IMG/VR virus record: IMGVR_UViG_2718218054_000003
From: a virus
Reading direction: 5' to 3' (one strand)
DNA length: 64,000 nucleotides
Made by a program: the position numbers and the translations under genes. Below the pieces are notes generated by a model that ran no database searches, was not told the DNA's origin, and worked only from the letters and a program-made list of their open reading frames with translations. Positions 45,646 to 59,179 of this stretch are shown piece by piece (within the stretch, counting starts at the first letter, position 1; every line of letters begins with the position of its first letter).

Positions 45646-46722
45646 TCAGGAGTTGTCCTCGTGGATGGCGAACGCGTGCTCGATGCCGACGGCGAAGCCG
45701 CGGCGTGCGCGGAGCTTCAGGATCGACTCGTCGGTAAGCGCGGCGAGGCCGTTTCGGCCGTCGATGTAGATCGACTCCGGGCCGGAGCGGATGCCCAGCA
45801 GCATGAACTGGGGGATGGCGAACACCGCGAGCGGGTTGCCGGTCGGCCGCGCGGTCGGCGTGGCGCTCGTGCGCGCACCGAGCGACCAGCGCACCGGGTA
45901 GCCCATGATGCGGTCCGGAACCGACGCGGCACCGGCGGAGTCACCGCTGGACGACTCGGCGAAGATCGGCCGGTCGTTCGCGTCGACGATGTCGCGCAGG
46001 ATCTGCTTGTACGCCGGGTGCACGATCCACACGCCGGCGCCGTCGACCCAGTAGTCGGAGGTCTCGACCTTGCCGAGCGTGGCCGACAGGCTGGCGTAGC
46101 TGGTGCCGCCCGAACCGGTCTTCGTGATGTTGCTGTTCGCGGTGTAGTTGGTGTCCGCGTTGGTCTGCGTCAGCGTGTAGTACAGGCTGTCGAACTTGCA
46201 GCCCGTGCTCGACTTGGACGCGGTGACCGCCAAGCAGGCGTTGTCGAGGCCCTTCGCGTACGCGGTGGCCCAGTCGCTCAGCTTGGTCTCGACGACGTCG
46301 GCGAGGGAGTCGTCGATGTCCTCCTCGGCGATCCGGACCGCGCGACCGAACTTCTGCGCGCTCAGGATCACCTCGTCGTTGACGTTGGTGTCCTCGCCGT
46401 AGGCACCGCCCTTGGCGACGATGTCCATGTCGATGCCGCCCGACCGCGGGGTGGACCGGGTCTGCGACTTCATGGGGACGCGGTGTGCGACCGCCTCCAC
46501 CGCGGAGTTCTGGCGGATCTTCTGGATGACGTCGGCGCCGAACTCCTCCCAGAGCCACGGCTCGTACGTGTTCCGCGCGCCGCCGCCGAGGGCGCGAATC
46601 GGGGAACCGTCCGGGGCGAAGCCGAGGATGTCGCCGACGTCGTGAGCCGGGACGCGGGAGTCGAAGAGCTCGCGGTCGCGGTCGGTGAACAGGTCGCTGT
46701 TGCGCAGCAGAGTGCCGCCCAT
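45646..46722 (-). CDS. Major capsid protein (HK97 fold) with N-terminal leader
   Basis: GAAGGG RBS; V.LSAQKF..AVRI.EE..DD; DRIMGYPV; ILKLRARRGFAV. Confidence 0.9.
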   Translation of the reverse strand: MGGTLLRNSDLFTDRDRELFDSRVPAHDVGDILGFAPDGSPIRALGGGARNTYEPWLWEEFGADVIQKIRQNSAVEAVAHRVPMKSQTRSTPRSGGIDMDIVAKGGAYGEDTNVNDEVILSAQKFGRAVRIAEEDIDDSLADVVETKLSDWATAYAKGLDNACLAVTASKSSTGCKFDSLYYTLTQTNADTNYTANSNITKTGSGGTSYASLSATLGKVETSDYWVDGAGVWIVHPAYKQILRDIVDANDRPIFAESSSGDSAGAASVPDRIMGYPVRWSLGARTSATPTARPTGNPLAVFAIPQFMLLGIRSGPESIYIDGRNGLAALTDESILKLRARRGFAVGIEHAFAIHEDNS

Positions 46723-46764
46723 GGTCGTGCCCTTCAGGCGATGGGGAGGTGGCTGGCACCTGCG

Positions 46765-46836
46765 CCCCATCACGGGCACGCGGGTCGGAGGTCTTGCTGG
46801 GTCCGATCACCGGATGCGGTGGACGCCCATCACGGG
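46765..46836 (-). repeat. Two CCCGTGATGGG mini-hairpins in capsid 5' leader
   Basis: Direct repeat at about 46766 and 46826. Confidence 0.65.
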
Positions 46837-46909
46837 CCGTACACCTGGCCGAAGAATACACGCTTAGTCAGGCAAAGCTACGACGAAACGGCGGAAGATA
46901 GATCGCGCT

Positions 46910-46931
46910 ACCGAAGATTCGTCGGTACGAT
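46910..46931. promoter_or_regulatory. Operator-like site ACCGAAGATTCGTCGGT adjoining -10 TACGAT of the RNA operon
   Basis: Motif recurs at 46849, 57571, 59765, 59802, 63467, 63499. Confidence 0.6.
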
Positions 46932-46939
46932 GCGCCCAT

Positions 46940-47087
46940 GTCCTGCTAGTAGTTCAGCGGCCTAAGACGCCGCGATCGTGGAGATCGAGTCTCCTGCGGG
47001 GACCCGTTGATCCAGCACCCCGCGAACCCCGGCAAGGGGAGTGACACCGATCGCGGAAGCGCCGGTTCAAATCCGGTCGGCGGGACA
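46940..47087 (+). ncRNA. tRNA-bodied RNA with a 77-nt structured insert replacing the anticodon loop
   Basis: Acceptor stem, D arm GTTCAGCGGCCTAAGAC, anticodon stem CCGCG/CGCGG, T arm GCCGG-TTCAAAT-CCGGT; insert 46975-47051 folds into three hairpins. Confidence 0.8.
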
Positions 47088-47088
47088 T

Positions 47089-47172
47089 GGAAGGCGGCGC
47101 CGAGGTCGGCAAACCGGTCTTGAAAACCGGGCCGGGCCTAACAGCCTGGGGGTTCGATACCTCCGCCTTCTG
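47089..47172 (+). tRNA. tRNA-Ser(UGA), short D-loop
   Basis: GGAAGGC/GCCTTCT; CCGGT-CT-TGA-AA-ACCGG; long variable arm; G73. Confidence 0.8.
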
Positions 47173-47185
47173 CTGATGCTCGACT

Positions 47186-47269
47186 GGAAGACGGCGGCGC
47201 TGGTGCGCCAGATCGGTTGCTAACCGGTCGCCGGGCGAGAGCCCGAGGGTTCGATCCCTTCGTCTTCCG
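47186..47269 (+). tRNA. tRNA-Ser(GCU)
   Basis: GGAAGAC/GTCTTCC; ATCGG-TT-GCT-AA-CCGGT; variable arm with GAGA loop; G73. Confidence 0.85.
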
Positions 47270-47277
47270 CGCAGCAA

Positions 47278-47349
47278 GGCCGGTGAGCCATACGGTTGAG
47301 GCACCGCCCTTTCAAGGCGGGGAACCGGGTTCGATTCCCGGATCGGCTA
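47278..47349 (+). tRNA. tRNA-Glu(UUC)
   Basis: GGCCGGT/ATCGGCT; CCGCC-CT-TTC-AA-GGCGG; CCGGG-TTCGATT-CCCGG. Confidence 0.88.
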
Positions 47350-47351
47350 CA

Positions 47352-47441
47352 GCTCGGCGAAGTCGAAAGAGGCGTGGCGCCCCACGTCGAGTCGAGAGGC
47401 AGCAGGGTCCCGTCAGAGATGCGGGACAGCCCGTGGCAGCC
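47352..47441 (+). ncRNA. Unassigned structured RNA between tRNA-Glu and tRNA-fMet
   Basis: GCTCGGCG/CGTCGAGT stem; GTCCCG/CGGGAC stem; GNRA loops; no T-loop. Confidence 0.5.
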
Positions 47442-47445
47442 GCGG

Positions 47446-47518
47446 TGCGCCGTGGAGCAGTCGGTAGCTCGCTGGGCTCATAACCCAGAGGTCGCGGGTT
47501 CAAGTCCCGCCGGCGCTA
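47446..47518 (+). tRNA. Initiator tRNA-fMet(CAU)
   Basis: 1:72 mismatch, three G-C pairs in anticodon stem CTGGG-CT-CAT-AA-CCCAG. Confidence 0.92.
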
Positions 47519-47525
47519 CAACGAG

Positions 47526-47560
47526 AAGGGCCCGCCCGGATGTCACCGGGCGGGCCCTTT
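47526..47560. terminator. Bidirectional terminator between RNA operon and Ro60 gene
   Basis: AAGGGCCCGCCCGG/CCGGGCGGGCCCTT stem followed by T run. Confidence 0.8.
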
Positions 47561-47572
47561 GTCACATGCCGT

Positions 47573-49216
47573 TCAGAACGGCCAGGTGGCGTCTCGGCCG
47601 GACTCGAGCCACGGGATCATCTTGAAGGCCGCGTCGGTCAGGCCGCCGAAGGTGTGCCGGTTCCGCGCTCCGGAGCGGGTGTTGCCGTGCTGGTAGCCAC
47701 CCAGGTTCCACACGTACACCGGCGTGCTGCCCGGCACCGAGGCGGCAGCGTCAGCCGAGGCCGACTGCTCGTCGGTCACGATGATCACGCGGTCGTGGCC
47801 GGCGAAGTGCTCGCGCACCGCAGCTGCCGTGTCCGTGTAGCTGATCGGGTCGCCGAGGCCGTCGACGAACTTCAGCAACGACCCGCCGCGGGGCGGGTCG
47901 ACCTTGCGGCTCGTGCCACCGAACAGCACGGTCGTGGCGTTGGCCGCGCGCATCGCAACCGCGCAACCGAACACCGCCGCCTGGTCCGCGCACGTGATGT
48001 CCGACTTGGACGGCGTCGAGAAGTGGTAGCCGGGGAACATCGACGGCGACCGGTCGATCAGCACGAGCGTCCGCCCCGGCAGCGCGGGCACGTTCCGCAG
48101 GGACGCCTGCAGCGCCTTCTCCAGTGTGTGCCCCCACCGCAGCGACGGCGCGGCCCGGTACGCGGCCAGGAACCGGAACGGGAACTGCTGCGACCGCTCC
48201 ACCTGCGCGGGGTCCGCCAGCTTCGCCGCGACCTCTGCTGCGACCTCGTCCGAGACGCCGGCCTCGTCGAAGTTCCTGAGCTGACGGAGCAACGCCATGT
48301 AGCCCATGGTCGGGACGAGCGCCTCCCACACCTGCGCGGTCATCGGGCCCTGCAGCCACCCGGCGACCGACTCCCACGTCATGCCTGCCTGCCGCAGCAC
48401 CGAGGAGACGGCGTCGCGGTCACGGTCGAACAGGGCACGGCGCTTCTCGACCGGCCACTTCATCAGCTCGGCGCGCGCAGCCATCATCTCGAGCCGGGCG
48501 GGGATGGCGGCTTCGTTGTCGCGTCGCCGGTCGAGCATGTGCTGGAACAGGTCGCCCTGCCAGTCCGCCTTCGGTGACGGGTGCGCGAGGTTCAGCACGT
48601 CGGCCATGCGGAAGCCGCGGGCGGTGCTGTCCCACTTCAGCACCGCGCGCTCGTCCCACAGGCGCTGGATGGCGTCGGCGATGCCGCGCTTCACGGGCTT
48701 GGGCACCTTGCGTCCGTGCACCGCGGTCCAGTAGGCGAGGAGTTCGCCGGGCTCGTCGGCGCGCTGCAGCACGGACTCGATGACGTTGCGGTTGGCGGCC
48801 AGCACGTAGTTGAGGTGGTCGCCGTCGAACGTGCCGTCGAGCGCCTGCGTCTCGTGCTGGTCGGCCGGGCGCGTGCCGGCGGCGGCGAGGCGGGCGTGCA
48901 CGTACTCGGCCGCGCCGACGAGCGATGCCGTGCGCATGTTCGCCTCGGTGCGCAGCCAGAGCAGGAACCGGGCCGTCCACGCCGGATCCTCCAGCGCGAC
49001 GGTGCGCACGAGGTCGGCGTAGCGGACGTCGCGCTTCTCGGCGGACTCGTAGAAGGTGTCGGTGCCGACCATGTTGGACACGGCGTGCAGGAACAGCTCG
49101 GACTTGGTGTCGCGCGCGAAGGCCTCGCCGCCCTGGTGATTGCGGGCGATCGTGGGCGTGCTGACGACCGGGCTGGAGACAGCCGGTCGGACCCCTTGGG
49201 TGTTGAATCGTGCCAC
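47573..49216 (-). CDS. rsr: Ro60/TROVE-domain RNA-binding protein with vWA domain
   Basis: MARFN start, YLR..ANMRT-like WLRTEANMRTASL, QRADEPGE, KWD, MGYMALLRQLRNF, QFPFRFLAAY, MIDAS DRSPS, IVTDEQ. Confidence 0.93.
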   Translation of the reverse strand: MARFNTQGVRPAVSSPVVSTPTIARNHQGGEAFARDTKSELFLHAVSNMVGTDTFYESAEKRDVRYADLVRTVALEDPAWTARFLLWLRTEANMRTASLVGAAEYVHARLAAAGTRPADQHETQALDGTFDGDHLNYVLAANRNVIESVLQRADEPGELLAYWTAVHGRKVPKPVKRGIADAIQRLWDERAVLKWDSTARGFRMADVLNLAHPSPKADWQGDLFQHMLDRRRDNEAAIPARLEMMAARAELMKWPVEKRRALFDRDRDAVSSVLRQAGMTWESVAGWLQGPMTAQVWEALVPTMGYMALLRQLRNFDEAGVSDEVAAEVAAKLADPAQVERSQQFPFRFLAAYRAAPSLRWGHTLEKALQASLRNVPALPGRTLVLIDRSPSMFPGYHFSTPSKSDITCADQAAVFGCAVAMRAANATTVLFGGTSRKVDPPRGGSLLKFVDGLGDPISYTDTAAAVREHFAGHDRVIIVTDEQSASADAAASVPGSTPVYVWNLGGYQHGNTRSGARNRHTFGGLTDAAFKMIPWLESGRDATWPF

Positions 49217-49248
49217 AGGCTCAACCTCTCTGCGAGAGGGAGCTACAG

Positions 49249-49399
49249 CCTCACACGGGCCCGAGGTCAAGTCGGTGAAGGTGACAATGCGTCCTGGGCC
49301 GCTAGACCACGTCGACATGAAGCCGACGGCAGGATTCGAACCTGCGCCTCACCTTTTGCAGAGGAAGTAACCCTCGCCTGCGCACCGGGCCGTGTGAAG
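49249..49399 (-). ncRNA. yrlA: YrlA-type Y RNA with circularly permuted tRNA-like domain
   Basis: Order T arm (GCAGG-TTCGAAT-CCTGC), acceptor closed by loop (CGTCGGC-TTCAT-GTCGACG), D arm (GTCTAGCGGCCCAGGAC); terminal stem with TTGACC; directly upstream of Ro60. Confidence 0.85.
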
Positions 49400-49406
49400 T
49401 TGTTGG

Positions 49407-49475
49407 CTCCCGAGATCAGGGCGCCGACGGTGGGTTTCTTTACGAGAGAAGTAACCGTCGGCTTCGCACCGGGAG
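49407..49475 (-). ncRNA. Second, short Y-like RNA lacking the tRNA-like domain
   Basis: 5' 26 nt match the YrlA-like RNA at 23/26; terminal stem CTCCCG/CGGGAG; inner stem GCCGACGG/CCGTCGGC. Confidence 0.7.
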
Positions 49476-49484
49476 TGCACGTCC

Positions 49485-49514
49485 ACTGTAACCCAGCTGT
49501 GCCACTGCTTTGAA
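49485..49514 (-). promoter_or_regulatory. SigA-like promoter for Y RNA-Ro60 operon
   Basis: TTCAAA-N18-TACAGT. Confidence 0.55.
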
Positions 49515-49518
49515 CCAT

Positions 49519-49935
49519 TCACACGACGGTGACGGTCTCCTCCGCCACCTCGCCGCTCACGATGCGAAACGACTTCACATCCGGCGGCATCCGGACGTTG
49601 CCGCGGTCGCGCGTCGCCACGATCACCCAGTGCGCCTCGGGAATCGTGGCGTGCTGGATGTCCAGCCTGGACGGGTACGCGTGCGTCGCCGTGTGCGAGT
49701 GGTAGATGACGACCGGCCGTTCCCGCTTCTCGGCCATCTCCTGCCACACCTCGATCTGTTCGTCCGGGTTAAACCGGTACGCCACGGTCGAGCGCTCGGC
49801 GTTGCGCATCGGCACGATCCGGTCCGGCACGTCGCCAGCGCGCGGGCCGGGCATAACACCGCAGGCCTCGATCGGGTGCTCGGCGCGGCAGTGCGCGAGC
49901 ATCGCGTCGAACAGGTGGCGGGGCATGGTCAGCAC
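49519..49935 (-). CDS. JAB/MPN+ metalloprotease, Mec (CysO-cysteine peptidase)-like
   Basis: EACG...YHSHTATHAYPSRLD (E, HxH-x7-S-xx-D). Confidence 0.9.
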   Translation of the reverse strand: MLTMPRHLFDAMLAHCRAEHPIEACGVMPGPRAGDVPDRIVPMRNAERSTVAYRFNPDEQIEVWQEMAEKRERPVVIYHSHTATHAYPSRLDIQHATIPEAHWVIVATRDRGNVRMPPDVKSFRIVSGEVAEETVTVV

Positions 49936-50600
49936 GGCGGCTCGGTCCCTTCGATCGCGGCGAGGACCTTCGTGACTCGATACGGCTGCTGGCACGACTC
50001 GCACCTCGGAAGCCCCCGGCGCATGCCGGACCTCTCGAACTCGGTGCCGTGGTACTGGCAGGACTTGGGCGCGTGCTTCAGCACGGACGCCGCGCGCAGC
50101 AGCTTCGCCTCAGCGCCGCCGGCGCGACGGGCCATCGCGACGAGCTCCTCCTGCAACGTCGCGTGCCCCGCTTGCTCGCACGCGGCACCGGCGGCCGCCG
50201 CGGCGAACAACATGCCGATCTGTTCCAGGCGCTGATCGACGGGCGTCTGGTTCCAGCGCGCCAGCCACTGGCCAGGCGTCGGACGCACGCCCTCGACCGG
50301 CTCCGTCGACGGGTCCTCGCCGGCGCGGAGCCACGCCACCTCCGCGCGCAGCCGCTCCAGCTCGGCGGCGTGCTCGTCGTCGTCCAGGTCGAGGAACACG
50401 AGGCGGGTCGCGCCGTCGTGGCCGTGCACGGTCTCGGCGCTCGCGAGGTCGTCCCAGTTCACTGTGGACTGGTGCTCGCCGCGCCACCGAATCGTGACCG
50501 TTCCGTCCGGCCACAGGACGCCGTCCGCGACCCGGCCGGTGCCGGACGCGCCGGTGACGTCAGTGCGGCGGTCGAGGTAGAACCTGTGAGGTTCAGCCAC
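49929..50600 (-). CDS. Conserved-looking phage hypothetical protein
   Basis: DVTGASGTG.VADGV.WPDG.V..RW, HGHDG.T. Confidence 0.7.
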   Translation of the reverse strand: MAEPHRFYLDRRTDVTGASGTGRVADGVLWPDGTVTIRWRGEHQSTVNWDDLASAETVHGHDGATRLVFLDLDDDEHAAELERLRAEVAWLRAGEDPSTEPVEGVRPTPGQWLARWNQTPVDQRLEQIGMLFAAAAAGAACEQAGHATLQEELVAMARRAGGAEAKLLRAASVLKHAPKSCQYHGTEFERSGMRRGLPRCESCQQPYRVTKVLAAIEGTEPPC

Positions 50601-50808
50601 CGTTGTTCTCCTTGCCCTGTTCGGCGTGGACCTGGCTTGATGTGAGGAGCTCGGCCGAGGACAGGATGATCGCCAGCCAGCTCAGGCCGAGGACGAACTG
50701 CGGTTCGTCGTTTGCGACGGTGAGCGCGGTGATGGGCCAGCCGATGGCCGAACCGACGAGCAGTACCCACGCGATGACGATCCGGGCCTTACGGGCGCGT
50801 TGGCTCAC
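50593..50808 (-). CDS. Small membrane protein
   Basis: 2 TM. Confidence 0.65.
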   Translation of the reverse strand: MSQRARKARIVIAWVLLVGSAIGWPITALTVANDEPQFVLGLSWLAIILSSAELLTSSQVHAEQGKENNGG

Positions 50809-51071
50809 GGCTGTTCCTGGTGGCAGGAGCAGCCGCAGCGGCGGCCAGTCTCGGTTGCGAGGATGGCCTGGGCGGCTTCCCAGACGTACATGACGGGCCT
50901 GCTCAGGAGAACCCGCCAGTTCTCGCGGCGGGCTTGCTCTTCGACGCTGCGCAGCCAGAGACCGATCGGCTTCCGGAGCGCCGGCGGTTGGATAACGTCG
51001 ACGTGCTCGACGGCATCAAGAAGCACGGCACGGAACTGCTCGACGGTCACGTCACTCAAGGACCTGGTCAT
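50805..51071 (-). CDS. Hypothetical protein
   Basis: ATGA coupling. Confidence 0.6.
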   Translation of the reverse strand: MTRSLSDVTVEQFRAVLLDAVEHVDVIQPPALRKPIGLWLRSVEEQARRENWRVLLSRPVMYVWEAAQAILATETGRRCGCSCHQEQP

Positions 51072-51532
51072 GGCAGCTCCACGTGGCAGTCGCAGATGCA
51101 GCGGCCGTTGACGTCCATGCGGCCCTGGGGCTCGCCGTGGTGGAGCGGCAACGTGCAGCAGCGGGGGATGATGGCGTCGAGCTGGTCGTGCAGGACGGGG
51201 ATGTGCGGTCCGAGGCCGGGCATGCCGGGGTAGGGCGGCGGGAACTCGTCGGCGCGGCGCTCGGCCACCACATTGGTCCGGTACACCACCCGCAGCGCGC
51301 CGGCTGACGGCTGACCCGGTTCCCACGGTTCCCGGACGATCTGGTCGTCCTCACCGCGGCGTTCCAGCGTCCAGGTCTCGTGGAGCGGTGTGGTGATGCG
51401 CCTGCCGTCCCGTGCCACGGCCTGCTTGAGGGCTCGCCGCGCCTCGTGCTTGAGGGCGTCCACGACGAGCGGTTGTTCTGCGTCGTCTGCGTGCAGCGCG
51501 AACGTGCCGCCGAATTGCTGAGGATCGGTCAC
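51068..51532 (-). CDS. Hypothetical protein
   Basis: GGAGG RBS; coupling. Confidence 0.55.
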   Translation of the reverse strand: MTDPQQFGGTFALHADDAEQPLVVDALKHEARRALKQAVARDGRRITTPLHETWTLERRGEDDQIVREPWEPGQPSAGALRVVYRTNVVAERRADEFPPPYPGMPGLGPHIPVLHDQLDAIIPRCCTLPLHHGEPQGRMDVNGRCICDCHVELP

Positions 51533-51795
51533 GAGGGGTCCTCCGACGATGCGTTGGTGCGGAGCCAGTGCAGGTCCGCGTGGCAGAGGTCCACCCAGCG
51601 GGGCCCGAGCTTGGTGTGCGCGATGCACGCGACCTGGGCGCGCTCGCCGCAGCGCAGGCAGCCGTGCACCTCGTCCTGGACACGGCGCGTGGTCGCGGCA
51701 CCCTGGTCGTCGGCTGGCGCTTCTTCGAGCAGACGCGGTTCCGCGCGCACGAGGTGGAGCAGGCCGTCGGCGAGTGCCCTTTCGGATGCGGTCAT
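51529..51795 (-). CDS. Small Zn-finger-like protein
   Basis: CLRC..DLC..D. Confidence 0.6.
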   Translation of the reverse strand: MTASERALADGLLHLVRAEPRLLEEAPADDQGAATTRRVQDEVHGCLRCGERAQVACIAHTKLGPRWVDLCHADLHWLRTNASSEDPS

Positions 51796-51942
51796 GGGCG
51801 CCATCCCTCGCGGTACCCGTCGTTGTGCTGGTAGGCGAGCGCGATGTCGCGCCACGTCCCGCAGGGGAAGTACTTGGTGTCCTCGAAGCCGATCGCTTGC
51901 TCTCGGCTGCACGCGTTGCACCACGCGGTATCGCAGCTTCAC
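51792..51942 (-). pseudogene. DUF6221-like C-terminal fragment with disrupted start
   Basis: Frame reads SCDTAWCNAC...FPCGTWRDIALAYQHNDGYREGWRP-stop; GTG is one base out of frame. Confidence 0.5.
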
Positions 51943-52376
51943 GTCGTGTCCTCCTCGACTGCGGTCCAGTTTTCGAGCACGACTACGCGACGGCGGTACA
52001 CCTTGCTGCCGTTCTGCAGCTCGTCCCGGATCCACTCCGCCAGCGGGTAGACGCGCTCGATGTCCGGATGCGGGTTGCGGACCTGCATCCCGCCGCTGGC
52101 CAAGCGGAGCGCGTGCTCGGTGAGCGTCGCCTCCGTGACCTTCGTGAGTTCCGCGTTCAGGCGCTGAATCGTGCGCAGGTACTCCAGCGGGGTGTGGGTG
52201 TCCACATGCGCCTGGAGGACGGCCTCCGCGTCCTGTGCCTCCTGAATCGCCACAGCCGCCACGAACTCGTCGAGCGTGAGGAACGAGCCCTGAGGTGGCC
52301 CTCCGAGGGGTGACGGGCGGTCGAGGTAGAAGTCGCACTCGTCGACCGGGCACAGGTGCCGAAGCGTTGGGCCCAT
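51939..52376 (-). CDS. Hypothetical protein
   Basis: Coupling. Confidence 0.6.
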   Translation of the reverse strand: MGPTLRHLCPVDECDFYLDRPSPLGGPPQGSFLTLDEFVAAVAIQEAQDAEAVLQAHVDTHTPLEYLRTIQRLNAELTKVTEATLTEHALRLASGGMQVRNPHPDIERVYPLAEWIRDELQNGSKVYRRRVVVLENWTAVEEDTT

Positions 52377-52819
52377 CACGGCCGCCACTCCTCGCGGTAT
52401 CCGGGGCGGTGCTGGTAGGCGAGCGCGACGATCCTGATGGTCTTGCAGGGGTATCGCTGTGGTGAGCTGCCGCCGTGCGTCGGGTAGCCCCACTTGCCGG
52501 TGACGCAGGTGGCGCAGTCGCCCTCGTTGACGTCCCAGTGCTCATCGAGGAGCGCTTCGTGTGCGGCGCACTGGGCGAGCACGACGCGCGGGTCGTGACG
52601 GACAATGTGCAGCGCGTCCTCGGTGGAGTCGAAGACGGGCGCCTCACCACCCCAACGGCCGCCGCCGATCACGCACGTTCCGTCGGCGCCGTAGATCGCC
52701 TCGGCGTACCCCGCGTCGTTCACATGCCACGGACCGTCGCAGGACTCCTCCGCGATCCGTCGATCCTCGGCGATCTGCTCGCGCAGCCACACCACGAGCT
52801 CGTCGAGCGCCGCCGTCAC
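52376..52819 (-). CDS. DUF6221-family protein
   Basis: WLREQIAED, HDPRVVLAQC, PC.TIRIVALAYQHRPGYREEWRP. Confidence 0.75.
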   Translation of the reverse strand: MTAALDELVVWLREQIAEDRRIAEESCDGPWHVNDAGYAEAIYGADGTCVIGGGRWGGEAPVFDSTEDALHIVRHDPRVVLAQCAAHEALLDEHWDVNEGDCATCVTGKWGYPTHGGSSPQRYPCKTIRIVALAYQHRPGYREEWRP

Positions 52820-53205
52820 CGCGGTTCCTCCAGGAGTTGGGGGATGCAGTCGCCTGCGATCGAGCAGATCGTCCTGTCCCGCAGACGGATCGTGCCTGCT
52901 TCGGCGAGCGGGATCTCGTCAGCGCCGCCCTCTTTGCGAGGCCGGAGAACGGTCCACCGGATACCGGTTGTGGTGATCATGACGAGGTTCTTGTCGAAGG
53001 TTTCCCTTCTCGCCCGCGCGATCACCTCGGCCTCGGTGTAGCGGCGTGCGTAGTCGTCGGTGAAGTATTCAGCGATCAGCTCGCACTTCGCTTCGACTCG
53101 CTTGCGGGTGGCCCAGCAGCCGACGACGTGGAAGCCGGCCGTCATGTGGTCGATCATCGCCACCACCTCCACCTGCGCAGCCGCGCCCGGAAGCGCTGCC
53201 ACCAC
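52816..53205 (-). CDS. Hypothetical protein
   Basis: Coupling. Confidence 0.55.
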   Translation of the reverse strand: MVAALPGAAAQVEVVAMIDHMTAGFHVVGCWATRKRVEAKCELIAEYFTDDYARRYTEAEVIARARRETFDKNLVMITTTGIRWTVLRPRKEGGADEIPLAEAGTIRLRDRTICSIAGDCIPQLLEEPR

Positions 53206-53435
53206 GTGCGCTCTGGCAGCAGCACGACCTGCACGCCAGCAAGAGGGGCCACCACGCCGAGGTCGTCAGGGCGCTGGAGAAACGGCGGCGCAGCCGCGGT
53301 GTACCGCTTCAGCACGTCGAATTGGCGATGCGTCATGAAGACGTGCGTTGGCCACGGCTCGGCCGCCAGCGGCGGCATGTTGGCGAGCAGCGTCCTCATG
53401 TACTCGTCCATCTTGCTGCTGATCTGCTCGTGCAC
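53154..53435 (-). CDS. Hypothetical protein
   Basis: Start uncertain. Confidence 0.5.
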   Translation of the reverse strand: MHEQISSKMDEYMRTLLANMPPLAAEPWPTHVFMTHRQFDVLKRYTAAAPPFLQRPDDLGVVAPLAGVQVVLLPERTWWQRFRARLRRWRWWR

Positions 53436-53620
53436 GGCTCGGTGCCGGTGTCGGTGCTGCCCCAGCGCAACCGGGCGAGCAGCCCGACGACGTGGTCCCG
53501 CGCACCGGCCCAGCTGGCGAAGGACGTGACCTCCGGGTCGCCGAACCCGAGGCGTGGCCAGGTGACCGTCCACTCCTGCGGCGCGGTCTTCCTGATGCTG
53601 ACGCGGTCACGCACGATCAC
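53396..53620 (-). CDS. Hypothetical protein
   Basis: GTGA coupling at start. Confidence 0.45.
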   Translation of the reverse strand: MIVRDRVSIRKTAPQEWTVTWPRLGFGDPEVTSFASWAGARDHVVGLLARLRWGSTDTGTEPCTSRSAARWTST

Positions 53621-54017
53621 CGCCGCGGTGCATGCAGGGCGGGCGGTCGTTCCAGTTCATGTCGTAGTCGACCCAGACGAGCGTCCCGTTGAGCCAGCCC
53701 AGGTTCGCCGGCTTCTTGTCCATGGGACCGTTGAAGCCGATGGCGGCGTACACGTCGTCGGTCAGGTCCTCCGACGCGGGCTCGCACCGCGGGTAGACGT
53801 TGACGAGCCCGGCCGCCGACCAGAGGACAGGGCAGAGGCCTTCCTGCCCGGACCACTCGGCTTCGGACAGGTTCGCGGACAGCCCGCGGGCGAGACTCCA
53901 CATCACGCCGCGAAGCCTCTTGCCGTGCGAGCGCAGCGACGGAAACTTGAACGCCCACCGGCCGGCGAGCAGCACCGTGCGGGTGACTCCGCGGCGTACC
54001 GCGAACCGCGGCTCCAT
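53607..54017 (-). CDS. Minimal protein-kinase-like fold protein
   Basis: G.TR.V, AFKFP (Lys), NLSE (alphaC Glu), DKKPAN catalytic loop, VDYD. Confidence 0.55.
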   Translation of the reverse strand: MEPRFAVRRGVTRTVLLAGRWAFKFPSLRSHGKRLRGVMWSLARGLSANLSEAEWSGQEGLCPVLWSAAGLVNVYPRCEPASEDLTDDVYAAIGFNGPMDKKPANLGWLNGTLVWVDYDMNWNDRPPCMHRGGDRA

Positions 54018-54020
54018 GGT

Positions 54021-54818
54021 TCAGCGCTGCCCGGAGGCGTGGATCTTGGCCACGATCCGGTCGGCCGTGCGCGTGGGCTCCTGCTTCACGGGCGGCTTGT
54101 TCGCCGCCGTGACCTTCGTCGGGCGCGTCGGCTTCGTCGGCTCGGACGCCCGGACCGGTGCGGTGAACAACTCCGGGAAGTCGTCGACCAGCTGGTCGAT
54201 CTGGTCCTGGAGGCCGGTGATGTCGCCGTCCTCGTCCACGTCGATTTCATCGAGGTCGAGCCGGCGGATGAGCTTCTTGACGCGCTCCTCAGTCGGGTTC
54301 TGGAAGTTGGCCTCCAGCAACGCCGCCTTCGCCGCCGCCCGGACCGCGACCGGCTTGTACCGGGACGCCGCCGCCTCCTCGGCCTTCCTGATCCGCTCCG
54401 CCTCGTCGGTGTCGCCCGACGTCTCCGCGGCCTTGCGCTCCTTGCGCATCTCCGCGATCTGGCCCTCGCGCTTCTTGCGGAGCTCGCGCTCCTTCTGCAT
54501 CGCGGTCTCGAGGCGCTGCCAGTCCTCTGCGGTGCGCTCCGGCTTGTCCGTCTCCTTGACGGGCTTCGACTTGTCCCCGGGCTTCGCGTCCTGCGGTGCC
54601 TCGTCGGGCTCGTCATCGTCGTCCGGCTCGTCGTCGAGGAAGTCCCGCTGACCGCCGCCCGCGGGCGCACCCGATCCTGGGTTCTCCAGGTCGATCTCGG
54701 GGCCGTCGTCATCGTCGTCCGGGGCGCCGCCGAGCTGCGGCCACACCGGTTCGCCCTCGAACACCGCGAGGGCCGTACCCCACACGGGGTGCACCGGGTA
54801 GATCGTGTTGTCCTGCAT
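54021..54818 (-). CDS. Capsid scaffolding protein with N-terminal leader
   Basis: Acidic linker, coiled coil, LDLDEIDVDEDG, FPELF. Confidence 0.8.
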   Translation of the reverse strand: MQDNTIYPVHPVWGTALAVFEGEPVWPQLGGAPDDDDDGPEIDLENPGSGAPAGGGQRDFLDDEPDDDDEPDEAPQDAKPGDKSKPVKETDKPERTAEDWQRLETAMQKERELRKKREGQIAEMRKERKAAETSGDTDEAERIRKAEEAAASRYKPVAVRAAAKAALLEANFQNPTEERVKKLIRRLDLDEIDVDEDGDITGLQDQIDQLVDDFPELFTAPVRASEPTKPTRPTKVTAANKPPVKQEPTRTADRIVAKIHASGQR

Positions 54819-54826
54819 GGTGGTCC

Positions 54827-55849
54827 TCATCTCGTGCGGGCCCCGCTCTTGATGCGCGGGAAGGTCTCGAAGGAGCCGCGGCGCACGGCTGCGCGGGCGC
54901 GGGCCTGGACGGTGCTGAGCAGGGTGGTGCCGGACAGCAGAAGCCGTTCGGCGGCGTCGAGGCGGACCCGCTCGCTCTCGGACGGGAGCCGCCAGCCCGT
55001 CAAGATCGAGCGGGCCGCCTCGCGCTGCAGCGCCGCACGGAAGTCCGTGTCACCGGCGCTATCCCTGGTGCCCAGCCAGGGCTGTGTGCGGCACCGGCAA
55101 CGCGGGTGCCGCGGAGGAGACACGAGATCCGGGCCCGGCCAGACCGCGAGCGGCCGGATCCCGAAGGTCTTGGTGGCGTCGAAGACCCCGTCCACCGAGG
55201 TTTCGCCGGCGAGGCCGAGACAGTGCACGCACGCGTCGCGTTCGGCGATCCAGATGCGCTCCACGCCGAGCTCGTCCGCCACGGCGGCGGTGCCGGCGTT
55301 CGCGGCGCGGTTGGTTACCCACGCGGCGGCGGTGTCCGCTGCGATCGCGGCCTGCTGGGCGGGCGCGAACGCGTTCATCAGGCCGGTGAACCGGTCGTCG
55401 TCGAGGCGGGCCAGCGCCCGGTCGGCGTCCGCCAGGTGTCTGCCGATGGTGTCGTCGAGCTCGTCAACCGCGCGCAGCACGTCGTCGGGAAGCTCGTCGG
55501 CCTCGGCCGCGTCCAGGTCAACGTCGACCAGCACCTCGTCGGCGGCCTGCTCGACGCCGAGCCGGTAAGCCCGCACGGCGTACGCGGCCAGCGGGCGAGA
55601 CGCGTCGGGGCGCAACTCGCCGAGGTCCCCGCGCACCGCGTCGACAATCACCCGCAGCTGACGCTGGTCCGCGCGGTTCTTCGTCGTGCCGAACCGCGTG
55701 ATCCACCCGCGGGTGATTGCCCTCACGATGCGGGCGAGCGCGGTTCGCAGCGGCCCGGCGGTCGCGAGCCGTGCGGCCTCCTCCAGCGCGTACAGCTGCG
55801 CCGCATGCTCGACAACCCGGTCGGTGCCAGCAGGCTGAGGCCCGGTCAC
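54827..55849 (-). CDS. Minor capsid / Mu gpF-like head morphogenesis protein
   Basis: WIAERDACVHC, PPRHPRCRC; follows portal. Confidence 0.8.
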   Translation of the reverse strand: MTGPQPAGTDRVVEHAAQLYALEEAARLATAGPLRTALARIVRAITRGWITRFGTTKNRADQRQLRVIVDAVRGDLGELRPDASRPLAAYAVRAYRLGVEQAADEVLVDVDLDAAEADELPDDVLRAVDELDDTIGRHLADADRALARLDDDRFTGLMNAFAPAQQAAIAADTAAAWVTNRAANAGTAAVADELGVERIWIAERDACVHCLGLAGETSVDGVFDATKTFGIRPLAVWPGPDLVSPPRHPRCRCRTQPWLGTRDSAGDTDFRAALQREAARSILTGWRLPSESERVRLDAAERLLLSGTTLLSTVQARARAAVRRGSFETFPRIKSGARTR

Positions 55850-57495
55850 GACTCGTCCCGATCAGCGCTGCCGGCGGCGAGCTGTGGCACGACCTCCAGC
55901 ACGGCGCTGATCAGCTCGCGTACCTGCTCGGCCGGGATCAGCTCGAACGCTGTGACGCCAGCGAAAGCCTGCAGCACGCCACCGATCTGCTCCAGCAGCG
56001 CGAGCCGGGCCGGCAGGTCGTTGTCCTCCTCGCCGAGCCACGCCGTGATCTGCTCGTTGGTGTAGCCGGCCTCCGCGAATGCCTGCCGAACGGGGACACC
56101 AGCCTCGATCTGCAGCTTGATGGTCTGCCAGGCCTCCAGCCCGGACACGCGCTGCACGGGGGCCCAGTTGACGACCACCGGCACGCGCCCGAACCCAGCG
56201 ACCTTGAGAGCGAACTGCCACAGCTCCCGCCACGTCGCCTTGAACGACAGCACGCGGTTCTCGCACTTCTGGTCGAACGGGCGGTCGTGCTGCGAGTAGC
56301 TCGCACCGGACGGCTGCTGGCCGGTGACCGCGTCGAACAAGCGGACCGGGGTCTCGCAGGCCTGCGCGCCGAATCGCAGGTAGAACATCGCAGGCTTGAT
56401 GAAGACGTCAGGGTCGGCCTCGTCGAACTGGCCGACCGCCTTGACGCCACGCATGAACCACAGGTCGCCAGGGTCTGCGGTGAGCTGGGACGGCGCGCTT
56501 CCACCGCGGGTGCGGGTGGCGCCGGTGTCGTCGTCGGCGAAGGAGAACTCGTCTTCGTCGGCCGCCGCGGTCTCGCTGGTGTCGCTGCCTTCGGCGGTGA
56601 GCGCGTACCGCTGCTGGAAACCCTGGTAGTCGACCGTGCCCATGTGGGTGACGATCAACTTCCGCAAGATCTGCTGGGTGCCGTAGAAGCCCTTGTGGTC
56701 AGGGGTGCCGTATGGGCCGACGTCGGTGCGGAAGTGGAACACCGGGATCTCGTCGTACGGGTTGTCGTACGGCCACTCGTCGTCCTCGTCGTCGCGGAAG
56801 ACGTAGAAGTCTGCGGCGGTGGGGTTCCGGACCTTGCCCCTGGTGACGTACTTCTCCAGCCGGTCCCGATAGAACAGGTCGACCCTGGACCGGCCGTCGG
56901 TCAAGCGCCACATCTTGATCGCGAACGCCTTGACGCGTTCGTTTTCCGGGTCGTAGATGATCCGTGTGCACAACGGGGAGTTGTAGGTGATGTCGATCTT
57001 CTCGCGACTCGCCGATCCTTCCGAGACACGAGACTCTTCGGGCACGTCGATGTCGCCGGTGTCGGCGTCGTTGTCCTCCGCAGCGGGCCAGACGATGACG
57101 AGCGCATCGCCGTACTCTCCGGCGCGTAGGTGGATGTTCGGGGCGGCCAGATCGAGCTGGTTGCGTTCCCACTCGCGCTCGATCCATGCGGTGGCCTCGT
57201 CGTTGCCGGGGCACAGGGTCGACGTGATCTTCAGGCGGTTGACGACCGCGGTGACCGGGATGCGCGAGAAGTTGACTTTGTAGTCCACGCCGGTGCGCTC
57301 GATCGCCCGCCGCAGCCTGATGGACGCGAAGACCTCAGGTACATCGTCCTCGAAGTAGTCCTCGGCCTTCTGGTACTCCGCTGCCGCCTTGCGCAGTTCG
57401 TCGAGGCCGTATTCGAGGTCCGGGTTGGTTGCGCGCTCTTCCAGGATGGTGGCGACGACCGCGCCGGCGGACTCGGACAGCATCGGTGTGCTCAC
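55846..57495 (-). CDS. Portal protein (SPP1 gp6-like)
   Basis: After terL; NFSRIPV, YDNPY..IPVFHF, SGAS. Confidence 0.85.
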   Translation of the reverse strand: MSTPMLSESAGAVVATILEERATNPDLEYGLDELRKAAAEYQKAEDYFEDDVPEVFASIRLRRAIERTGVDYKVNFSRIPVTAVVNRLKITSTLCPGNDEATAWIEREWERNQLDLAAPNIHLRAGEYGDALVIVWPAAEDNDADTGDIDVPEESRVSEGSASREKIDITYNSPLCTRIIYDPENERVKAFAIKMWRLTDGRSRVDLFYRDRLEKYVTRGKVRNPTAADFYVFRDDEDDEWPYDNPYDEIPVFHFRTDVGPYGTPDHKGFYGTQQILRKLIVTHMGTVDYQGFQQRYALTAEGSDTSETAAADEDEFSFADDDTGATRTRGGSAPSQLTADPGDLWFMRGVKAVGQFDEADPDVFIKPAMFYLRFGAQACETPVRLFDAVTGQQPSGASYSQHDRPFDQKCENRVLSFKATWRELWQFALKVAGFGRVPVVVNWAPVQRVSGLEAWQTIKLQIEAGVPVRQAFAEAGYTNEQITAWLGEEDNDLPARLALLEQIGGVLQAFAGVTAFELIPAEQVRELISAVLEVVPQLAAGSADRDES

Positions 57496-57595: not shown

Positions 57596-59179
57596 TCATG
57601 ACGCCAGGTCTTCGTCATCCATGCCTGGCCGGTAGACGTCCACTCCGGCCTGTCGGCGGCGCCTGAGGAACTGGTCCACCCCAGTGCCGATGGCGTCGAC
57701 CACGTCGTCGTGCGGCGCCTTCGGGAAGCCGATCAGTTGCTCCTCGGCCACCGGGATGCGCCGCTCGTGCACCACGAACGGCAGGGCGTCGATCGGCCCA
57801 ACCGGCTTGGCCGGGTTCCGCTGCGGCCGCGTCTGGTACCAGCCCAGCAGCCGGGCCGCCCGGACCTCCTTCGCCTCGTCCTGGTGCACGGTCTTCACCT
57901 TCACCGGCATGTTGTGCAGGACGCTGTTCTCCCATACCTCGCCGCCCTGGTTGACCTCCACCACGATGCCCCGGATCCGCGGGTACTCCTTGAGGATTGC
58001 CAGCACCCTGCGCCGCAGCGGCGTGCCGGGCGGGACGCGGATCGCCCAAGCGGCGAGCACGACGCACCGCCGGTGGTAGGACGAGTAGGCGATCACCGCG
58101 AGCCCGGTGAAGTCCGACGTCTTCTTCGACGTCGTGGCGGGGTCGATCGACAACAGCATCGCCGTCTGCGCGGGCAGCTCGTGGACGATGATGTCGCCCT
58201 CGTTCCAGTAGTCCCCGTCGCGGGCCATGGGGTTGTTGTCGTAGTTCAGCCTGTACGACCGGGTGTGCTCGATGCTCACCAGGAACTCGAGCGGCCACTT
58301 CTCCGGCCACAGCGAGCGCCGCTCACCGGTCTCGTCGTCGGTGATGATCGCCCGGTAGTAGTGCACGCGGATCTTCTCGTCCGCGACCCACTCGGCCTGC
58401 TCCTCGCCCGGCATGTTCACCGTCTTGACGAGGTCGTGGATGATCGATCCGGGCATGGTCACGGTGCCGGCGATGACGACTCGGGCCCTGATGTTCAGCG
58501 GTAGGATCGCGTTCTGCAGCGTGCTGAGCCGCTGCGCCTTCTGGTAGTCGGAGTAGTTGCTCTCGTTCGGCTCGATGTCGTCCAGGATCAGCAGGTCCGG
58601 CCGGCGGGCGCCGACCTTCATGCCGAGCGACTGCGAGTCGATGCCCTTCGCCGCGAACACGAACCCGGACGCGGCGATCAACATCGACTTGGTGTCGGCC
58701 TCGGTCACGCCCGACGGGCGCCGGCCCGGGCTGCACAGGTCGGGGAAGTCCGCGCGGAGCAGTTGGTTGCGGTCGAGTTCGTGTTTGAAGCTGCCGAGGT
58801 GCATCTCGGCCTGCGGGCCTGCGTGCGCGAACGCGCCGATGAATTTCCGGTGCCCGTGAGCGGCGGCCCACAGCGGCAGGATCAGGAACAGCCACGTGCT
58901 CTTGCCGGCCTCGCGCGGGCACACGTAGGCGTCCCGGTCCGACCGTGGTTCGCGCGTCGGGAGCGCCCACCGCTTCGCAGCCTCGGCGAGCTGGACGTGG
59001 AACTCGGACAGGGTGATCCGCGCGTCCTCGCCTTCTCCGCGCAGGTGGTGCGGCAGGTACAGCAGCGCGAACAACAGCGGCTCGTACCGGGTGAGCTGCC
59101 GACGGCACTCTGGGTCCGAGAGCATCTCGGGGTCGAACTGCAGCAGGTACTGGTCGAGGCTGAAGCCCTCGGTCGCCAT
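57596..59179 (-). CDS. Terminase large subunit
   Basis: PREAGKST, LLILDDIE, SIDPA, HDDVVDA. Confidence 0.93.
   Translation of the reverse strand: MATEGFSLDQYLLQFDPEMLSDPECRRQLTRYEPLLFALLYLPHHLRGEGEDARITLSEFHVQLAEAAKRWALPTREPRSDRDAYVCPREAGKSTWLFLILPLWAAAHGHRKFIGAFAHAGPQAEMHLGSFKHELDRNQLLRADFPDLCSPGRRPSGVTEADTKSMLIAASGFVFAAKGIDSQSLGMKVGARRPDLLILDDIEPNESNYSDYQKAQRLSTLQNAILPLNIRARVVIAGTVTMPGSIIHDLVKTVNMPGEEQAEWVADEKIRVHYYRAIITDDETGERRSLWPEKWPLEFLVSIEHTRSYRLNYDNNPMARDGDYWNEGDIIVHELPAQTAMLLSIDPATTSKKTSDFTGLAVIAYSSYHRRCVVLAAWAIRVPPGTPLRRRVLAILKEYPRIRGIVVEVNQGGEVWENSVLHNMPVKVKTVHQDEAKEVRAARLLGWYQTRPQRNPAKPVGPIDALPFVVHERRIPVAEEQLIGFPKAPHDDVVDAIGTGVDQFLRRRRQAGVDVYRPGMDDEDLAS

Follow-up and report, generated by a model that had tools for sequence, protein, structure and literature searches.

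Canonical prohead proteases, such as HK97 gp4 (S78), T4 gp21, lambda C (S49) and the ClpP-like enzymes, are serine proteases of the herpesvirus-assemblin or ClpP fold, are encoded beside the capsid gene and are packaged in proheads. A different arrangement has been described in Staphylococcus phage 80α, where the capsid and scaffold share an N-terminal leader of 13–14 amino acids (aa) that mimics the N-terminus of ribosomal protein L27 and is cut by the host cysteine protease Prp at F↓A (PMC5744158). Cleavage of the 80α capsid is dispensable, an uncleavable capsid being viable, and the scaffold leader is needed for assembly irrespective of cutting (PMC5744158). For the lambda tail proteins K and I, JAB-mediated processing of a ubiquitin-like (Ubl) segment at its last Gly has been proposed (PMC1779556). 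In the literature searched, no report of a JAB/JAMM protease in head maturation was found. Here, we describe a prophage in which such an enzyme may act on head proteins. The stretch analyzed, hereafter the window, comprises 64,000 nucleotides (IMG/VR virus record IMGVR_UViG_2718218054_000003) and corresponds to C1:650352-714351, minus strand, of a 10-Mb single-contig genome from a Streptomyces-like actinobacterium. Its major capsid protein and scaffolding protein share an N-terminal leader ending in Gly-Gly, and a stand-alone JAB protease related to the host JAMM enzyme Mec is encoded between the two genes. We tentatively propose, with confidence a little short of even, that a widespread group of actinophages matures its heads by means of a JAMM/MPN+ protease, either a phage relative of Mec or host Mec itself, that cuts hairpin leaders from capsid and scaffold.

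The locus resembles 80α in that capsid and scaffold share a conserved N-terminal leader, which here too may imitate a host protease substrate, the scaffold is a separate protein, no phage prohead protease was found, and the presence of the leader is independent of the other head genes. Structural matches of the window capsid include that of SaPI1/80α. It differs in that 80α relies on a cysteine protease, Prp, and on an F↓A site, whereas the candidate enzyme here is a JAMM protease that would cut at G-G↓A behind a leader of 31–48 aa with a hairpin. Furthermore, the 80α leader copies the N-terminus of L27, whereas here only the tail of the leader resembles the C-termini of CysO, ThiS and MoaD, and the protease is encoded by some of the phages themselves. 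Compared with the host Mec/CysO/CysM system, the window JAB has the same JAMM motif and 52–53% identity to host Mec, and the CysO tail ILPAVAGG is like that of the leader; however, neither cysO nor cysM adjoins the phage JAB, which falls outside the host Mec clade. The natural substrate of Mec is a full beta-grasp protein with a single Cys after the Gly-Gly, not a hairpin leader on a large protein. The proposals for lambda and T1 K/I and for the window have in common a phage JAB that processes a phage morphogenetic protein, but K/I concerns tail assembly, where JAB is fused to NlpC/P60 and I contains a true beta-grasp, whereas the JAB considered here is stand-alone and linked to the head. With the canonical prohead proteases it would share its role, the removal of an N-terminal segment of the capsid (and scaffold) in head maturation.

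Capsid and scaffold carry a common leader

An earlier note on this DNA had read capsid residues 39–47 as GSPIRALGG and scaffold residues 22–31 as GEPVWPQLGG; both readings were confirmed, the former on the minus strand and the latter when counted from the ATG at 54818. The note had united them in a G-x-P-[IV]-x(2,3)-L-G-G motif closing an N-terminal extension. A conserved module does end the extension, but its spacing is fixed rather than x(2,3), and its tail is "AGG", not strictly "LGG". These refinements come from comparison with relatives gathered by a tblastn search of 50,697 phage genomes, which identified 19 related capsids, and by pattern scans of prokaryote genomes and IMG/VR, which contributed another 97 loci. 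Leaders were obtained by translating upstream of each capsid and scaffold match, and they align without gaps over approximately 20 residues with the consensus [LI]-G-[YFH]-x3-G(-10)-x-P(-8)-[IV](-7)-x-x-Φ(-4)-A(-3)-G(-2)-G(-1)↓A(+1). Among 66 distinct sequences, 24 from capsids and 42 from scaffolds, G occupies position -2 in all 66, P position -8 in 64, I or V position -7 in 65 and A position +1 in 54; 54 sequences have G at position -1, 10 have A and 2 have S, and position -3 varies as [AG] across homologs. Because the alignment of homologs is gapless, the boundary in the window capsid is placed at GGG↓ARNT, that is, G48↓A49. Downstream of the leader, capsids continue with A-R-[ND]-T-x-E-x-W and scaffolds with an acidic tract.

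The motif in the form given by the earlier note occurs five times in the 3.6 million residues encoded by open reading frames (ORFs) of the 10-Mb genome that are rich in third-position G+C (GC3). The same ORFs contain 665 copies of the tetrapeptide [ILV]AGG. A hidden Markov model (HMM) of the 18-residue leader core, run against the whole genome, matched the capsid at E 5e-4, matched the scaffold weakly and had no further hits; over all loci, it matched capsid and scaffold ORFs only. With this model, no host protein bearing the leader, as L27 does for 80α, was found in the 10-Mb genome. These comparisons indicate that the capsid and scaffold carry a common, conserved leader module that did not arise by chance.

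Leaderless relatives start at the predicted cleavage site

The relatives fall into three classes. In class A, the leader is present on both capsid and scaffold; Rooney, Yara and Dryad, all phages of Streptomyces, belong here together with the window, its close relatives among Actinosynnema and Saccharothrix prophages and many viral contigs from soil. Only the scaffold has the leader in class B, which forms a large clade of prophages from Streptomyces, and neither protein has it in class C (Zuko, KimJongPhill, Microbacterium phages and several contigs). All leaderless capsids begin with M/V-[ATS]-R-N-T, exactly at position +1, and these starts are preceded by ribosome-binding sites (RBSs) of the AGGAGG type and by upstream stop codons. 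A tree built from the mature part of the capsid needs at least four changes to explain the leaderless state, three of which are forced by well-supported branches, and one leaderless clade is nested within a leader-bearing, JAB-rich clade. Since the N-terminus always lies at the same residue, a free N-terminus at +1 is probably important. The constant start is likewise suggestive, although not proof, of cutting at +1 in the leader-bearing proteins. The leader has been gained or lost between close relatives while the other head genes remained unchanged.

Two further observations concern the leaderless state. The scaffolds of L071, L082, L087-L092, L100 and L103 read MGIQTDTATDEPD... as opposed to MGIHT...LGYRADGRPIHVIAGGAETDDEPD in close relatives; leader loss in these scaffolds seems to have occurred by internal deletion, possibly between short DEPD-like repeats, with the adjacent genes unaltered. 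Additionally, two satellites of Streptomyces phages, OQ784832 (Mulchroom) and OQ357865 (MiniFlayer), have capsids of the window capsid family, which appear to be leaderless, their matches starting at residues 49 and 56.

The JAB protein is a diverged relative of host Mec

The window JAB scores 89.6 bits against PF14464 (cut-off 25). It consists of a JAB domain only, is encoded in the head region and lacks NlpC/P60, and hence is not of the lambda gpK type. Its catalytic motif, E..HxHx7Sx2D, is intact; E20, H76, H78, S86 and D89 do not vary among 14 sequences from phages and hosts, and all phage JABs retain the catalytic residues. Its identity to any host Mec is at most 53%, and host Mecs are mutually 57–80% identical across the class. 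Host Mec is encoded in a mec-cysO-cysM operon, and Mec-like genes were present in 106 of the 121 sampled genomes of the class, a tally that includes the unpublished genomes G059, G061, G065 and G072, none of which was used in the tree. This tree places 35 host Mecs, drawn from the whole class, in a single well-supported clade, with all phage JABs on long branches outside it. The phage proteins are therefore old, diverged, phage-borne relatives of Mec rather than recent captures from hosts. An early, small tree had suggested recent capture of the Dryad JAB from a host; with 35 host sequences, this JAB too falls outside the clade, and the earlier placement was a sampling artefact. No Ubl, E1, cysO, cysM or cysteine-synthase gene was found adjoining the phage JABs. 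One member of the group, the 212-aa JAB ORF of L026 (L026:2538-3176), has an extension of approximately 80 aa after the JAB domain.

JAB genes occur with leader-bearing capsids

The association between JAB and leader was examined in both directions: in the forward test, JAB homologs were sought within ±10 kb of the capsid gene, and in the reverse test, JABs were collected and the accompanying capsid was checked. In the forward test, JABs were found within ±10 kb in class A only, and none of the 58 distinct leaderless capsids had one within that distance. JAB was also absent from the whole or partial leaderless records of Zuko, KimJongPhill, Wyvern and ten viral records that are 25–94% complete. 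Scaffold and capsid flank the gene in the window, L008, L009 and L029; in L048, where 2 nt part its start from the stop codon of the scaffold and no other gene intervenes before the capsid; and in L049, L050 and L053, where it stands beside a gene for a 176-aa protein of unknown function. Altogether, four lineages show this arrangement: the window lineage, L048, L049/50/53 and L124. JAB lies outside the scaffold–capsid interval in L026, L038, Dryad and G016-G020. It is found upstream of the terminase in L026 and L066, and in L038, a 77-kb contig with terminal repeats, a whole-record search located it approximately 15 kb from the head genes. Because the position of JAB varies between lineages, its link to the leader is not merely inherited synteny.

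In the reverse test, tblastn against the 50,697 phage genomes yielded one Mec-like JAB, in Dryad (50% identity), where it is annotated as a metalloprotease and lies among early genes; Dryad is one of the 19 phages with the window capsid family. The other three JAB matches were tail proteins of the lambda gpK type, and gpK-type JABs form a separate group of lower similarity, found in other phages. An alignment-based scan of 2.9 million viral contigs (IMG/VR), in which stand-alone JABs of at least 34% identity were kept, identified such proteins in 19 contigs; a single-sequence JAB pattern scan of viral contigs, unlike the alignment-based one, gave no matches. Leader-bearing capsids of the window family are carried by 17 of the 19 contigs, nearby or elsewhere on the contig, and the remaining two are fragments 20–31% complete. 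Weaker matches were JAB+NlpC/P60 tail proteins of unrelated phages. The co-occurrence expected in the earlier note thus holds in one direction: stand-alone Mec-like JABs are found only with leader-bearing capsids, without exception in our sample, but the converse fails, the leader often being present without a JAB.

Organization of the head module

The head module (Table 1) was delineated from GC3 frame analysis combined with Pfam and PHROGs, and it lies on the minus strand. G+C content across the window is 66–72%. The genes are ordered as terminase large subunit, portal, MuF-like protein, scaffold, approximately 7 kb of accessory genes, a plus-strand tRNA array and capsid. The accessory insert, read from scaffold to capsid, holds a 136-aa ORF, DUF6221, several unknowns, the 223-aa ORF, JAB and TROVE/Ro60. 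Among the ORFs between terminase and capsid, Pfam and PHROGs revealed no prohead protease of the S78, S49, ClpP or T4 gp21 type; the phrog_595 match of the MuF-like protein covers its MuF domain only.

Table 1. Features of the head module, with positions numbered from the first letter of the window
Feature	Coordinates	Strand	Evidence
Major capsid protein, 358 aa, HK97 fold, 48-aa N-terminal leader	45646..46722	-	PF05065 2.1e-14; AlphaFold2 pTM 0.72; Foldseek; RBS + ATG
Capsid leader, residues 1-48, hairpin core HDVGDILGFAPDGSPIRALGGG, proposed cleavage G48↓A49	46579..46722	-	aligns without gaps to 24 distinct capsid leaders
tRNA array Ser-TGA, Ser-GCT, Glu-TTC, Met-CAT	47089..47519	+	ARAGORN and Rfam
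TROVE/Ro60-like accessory protein in the scaffold–capsid insertion	47573..49318	-	PF05731 6.9e-17
Stand-alone Mec-like JAB/MPN+ (JAMM) metalloprotease, 135 aa, candidate leader peptidase	49519..49926	-	PF14464 1.7e-25
223-aa protein, function unknown, directly upstream of JAB	49929..50600	-	phrog_7499; no Pfam match
Scaffolding protein, start ATG 54830 (coupled) or 54818	54021..54830	-	PF06810 7.7e-15; phrog_4708
Scaffold leader ending ...GEPVWPQLGG↓APDDDDD	54726..54830	-	aligned with 42 distinct scaffold leaders; acidic tract after
MuF-like minor head protein, no protease domain	54827..55849	-	PHROG MuF-type families over residues 165-270; no Pfam match
Portal protein	55846..57495	-	PF05133 (SPP1 portal) weak, E 1.7e-05; position between terminase and MuF
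Terminase large subunit	57596..59179	-	position and synteny with annotated phages; no Pfam match

The capsid start at ATG 46722 has GAAGGG 8 nt upstream. For the scaffold, ATG 54830 overlaps the upstream stop codon (ATGA) and is the likelier start compared with 54818; the scaffold leader would then measure 35 aa, four residues longer. Foldseek matched the capsid to HK97-fold capsids of actinophages, HK97 and SaPI1, with probability 1.00 for Muddy, Bxb1, HK97 and SaPI1. The portal scores 24.4 bits against PF05133, slightly under the curated cut-off of 25.5 bits, and in tblastn comparisons it shares 30–63% identity with portal genes of phage relatives, which carry that annotation in the GenBank phages. 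Directly after the scaffold, the 136-aa ORF (53607-54017) matches phrog_4301 alone, a family of unknown function. L008 carries a TROVE gene like that of the window, with 66% identity. Neither megablast of the region against phage genomes nor tblastn with the scaffold returned a match.

No alternative protease was found among the inserts of head modules that lack JAB. Several inserts and neighboring genes are nonetheless worth recording. In one leader-bearing clade, two large genes between portal and MuF (L047:4051-7651 and L038:3533-7572) encode C-terminal ADP-ribosyltransferase (PF03496) domains, and their products may be packaged effectors. The MuF-like gene of L048 (L048:6575-8485) encodes 636 aa and may hold an intein, the match to an intein splicing domain being below threshold (26.3 bits against a cut-off of 35.8). 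The 176-aa ORF of L053 (L053:8938-9468), between scaffold and JAB, has no Pfam match, and its sequence, HVAVVVGPGGQIVEAEPGG, looks like that of a papain-like or NlpC-type hydrolase. If it is such a hydrolase, its pairing with JAB would echo the JAB+NlpC/P60 fusion of lambda gpK.

Discussion

Under the proposed mechanism, capsid and scaffold would share a removable N-terminal module composed of a short beta-hairpin followed by a flexible Φ-A-G-G tail, which would copy the C-termini of the host sulfur-carrier ubiquitin-like proteins CysO, ThiS and MoaD. A Mec-type JAMM metalloprotease would cut after the Gly-Gly; this enzyme would be the phage JAB where one is encoded, as in the window, and otherwise the near-universal host Mec. 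The cut would expose the same N-terminal Ala that leaderless relatives would obtain by removal of the initiator Met. We regard it as an evenly balanced proposition that a JAMM protease, of phage or host, removes the leader after G-G and leaves an N-terminal Ala. The motif and its conservation, the coincidence of boundaries, the co-distribution of JAB and leader, and the intact catalytic residues of the JABs make a JAB-dependent step in head maturation plausible; from these comparisons we infer the cleavage itself, the JAMM protease as its agent and the substitution of host Mec. The restriction of JAB to leader-bearing phages would fit the mechanism on the assumption that leader processing is the sole role of JAB and that JAB is lost after the leader is lost. 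Leaders without JAB would fit it if host Mec serves as a backup or if JAB is not strictly essential. Rooney, Yara and similar phages, having no JAB of their own, would have to rely on host Mec.

Several observations weigh against this mechanism. Leader-bearing records without JAB include, besides the complete phages Rooney and Yara, a 77-kb contig other than L038, complete and with direct terminal repeats, and two contigs that are 90–97% complete; class B, a large clade, never has a JAB. The co-distribution counts also exaggerate how independent the cases are, the phage lineages being related to one another. The coincidence of the leaderless start with position +1 could also have been produced by fusion of a leader upstream of an old start codon. 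The absence of a canonical prohead protease, which is common in SPP1- or P22-like systems with a separate scaffold, is normal in such a setting and therefore is not itself evidence of a missing protease. In the window, moreover, JAB and the capsid gene belong to different transcription units, being parted by the TROVE/Ro60 gene and the plus-strand tRNA array, so that the capsid gene needs its own promoter.

The nature of the leader provides further objections. The suggestion in the earlier note that the leaders are ubiquitin-tail mimics survives for their last four residues: the four ThiS-family proteins of the host end in ILPAVAGG (CysO), ILPSVAGG, VLPPFAGG and VLTAVQGG, as compared with P-I-x-x-I-A-G-G in the leader. 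It does not extend to a profile match or a beta-grasp. Four leaders gave no Pfam match to ThiS/Ubl (PF02597) at E values up to 10, against 1e-18 for host CysO, and the leader HMM had no match to CysO. In an AlphaFold2 (AF2) model of the capsid, built from a 30-sequence alignment (predicted template modeling score, pTM, 0.72), the leader forms a short helix and a hairpin, not a beta-grasp; the strands span residues 32-35 and 41-43 at a predicted local distance difference test (pLDDT) score of ~79, and residues 46-61, across the junction, have pLDDT <50. The scaffold leader, at 31–35 aa, is too short for a beta-grasp. The idea of a truncated beta-grasp was dropped because no ThiS/Ubl Pfam match was obtained, and "ubiquitin-tail mimic" is a fair description, whereas "ubiquitin-like domain" is not. 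JAMM enzymes usually require Gly-Gly. Position -1 is nevertheless Ala or Ser in 12 of the 66 leaders, including both proteins of the JAB-encoding L048 (AGA) and the scaffold of L029 (CGA), and this is the main biochemical objection to JAMM cleavage.

Two alternatives deserve consideration, each of which we think unlikely but worth setting against the evidence. In the first, the leader would be an uncleaved assembly hairpin, permanent or transient, that links scaffold and capsid to one another, to the portal or to a chaperone, with the Gly-Gly as a hinge; its link to JAB would stem from shared ancestry, and JAB would have another role. The requirement for the 80α scaffold leader, cut or uncut, provides a precedent, the AF2 model places a structured hairpin on a flexible linker, many leader-bearing phages have no JAB, and the leader comes and goes among close relatives whose other head genes are constant. 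However, an uncleaved hairpin leaves unexplained why each independent leaderless lineage starts at +1, why G at -2, a small residue at -1 and A at +1 are so strictly kept, and why Mec-like JABs, at varied genome positions, are restricted to leader-bearing phages. The second alternative, also improbable in our judgment, is that another protease of host or phage cuts the leader, while JAB removes defense-related Ubl or CD-NTase conjugates or acts on CysO and sulfur metabolism. This possibility would accommodate the leader-bearing phages without JAB, and Ala or Ser at -1 suits a protease that prefers small residues better than a JAMM enzyme. Non-structural genes surround JAB in Dryad, L038 and L026, and bacterial Ubl-conjugation defenses with JAB deconjugases are known. 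Nonetheless, searches of the head modules revealed no other protease gene, their inserts being ADP-ribosyltransferase-domain proteins, a possible intein, Ro60 and the like; no Ubl, E1 or cysteine-synthase gene adjoins any phage JAB; and an anti-defense or metabolic gene is unlikely to track a single capsid feature so tightly. Chance resemblance of two N-termini in a Gly/Pro/Ala-rich proteome can be dismissed as vanishingly improbable, for although GC-rich actinobacterial proteins abound in G, A and P and the [ILV]AGG tetrapeptide is frequent, the rarity of the full motif, its conservation at the same place in dozens of diverged capsids and scaffolds, and a leader HMM otherwise empty in the genome refute it.

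Cleavage of the leaders by a JAMM protease would, if true, be the first JAMM-dependent capsid maturation, and deubiquitinase-type metalloproteases would join the few enzymes known to mature the heads of tailed phages. On the comparative evidence, the novelty would lie in the protease class and in the signal, proteolytic head maturation through mimicry of a substrate being already known. It would also constitute a second, independent case of phage head proteins mimicking a host protease substrate, extending the 80α/Prp idea to Actinobacteria and to the ubiquitin-like sulfur-carrier system. Cultured SEA-PHAGES phages span the relevant states, with JAB (Dryad), with a leader but no JAB (Rooney and Yara) and with neither (Zuko and KimJongPhill), and tractable Streptomyces hosts are available for them. 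Stand-alone phage JABs, which are usually read as anti-defense or tail genes, would thereby gain a testable function.

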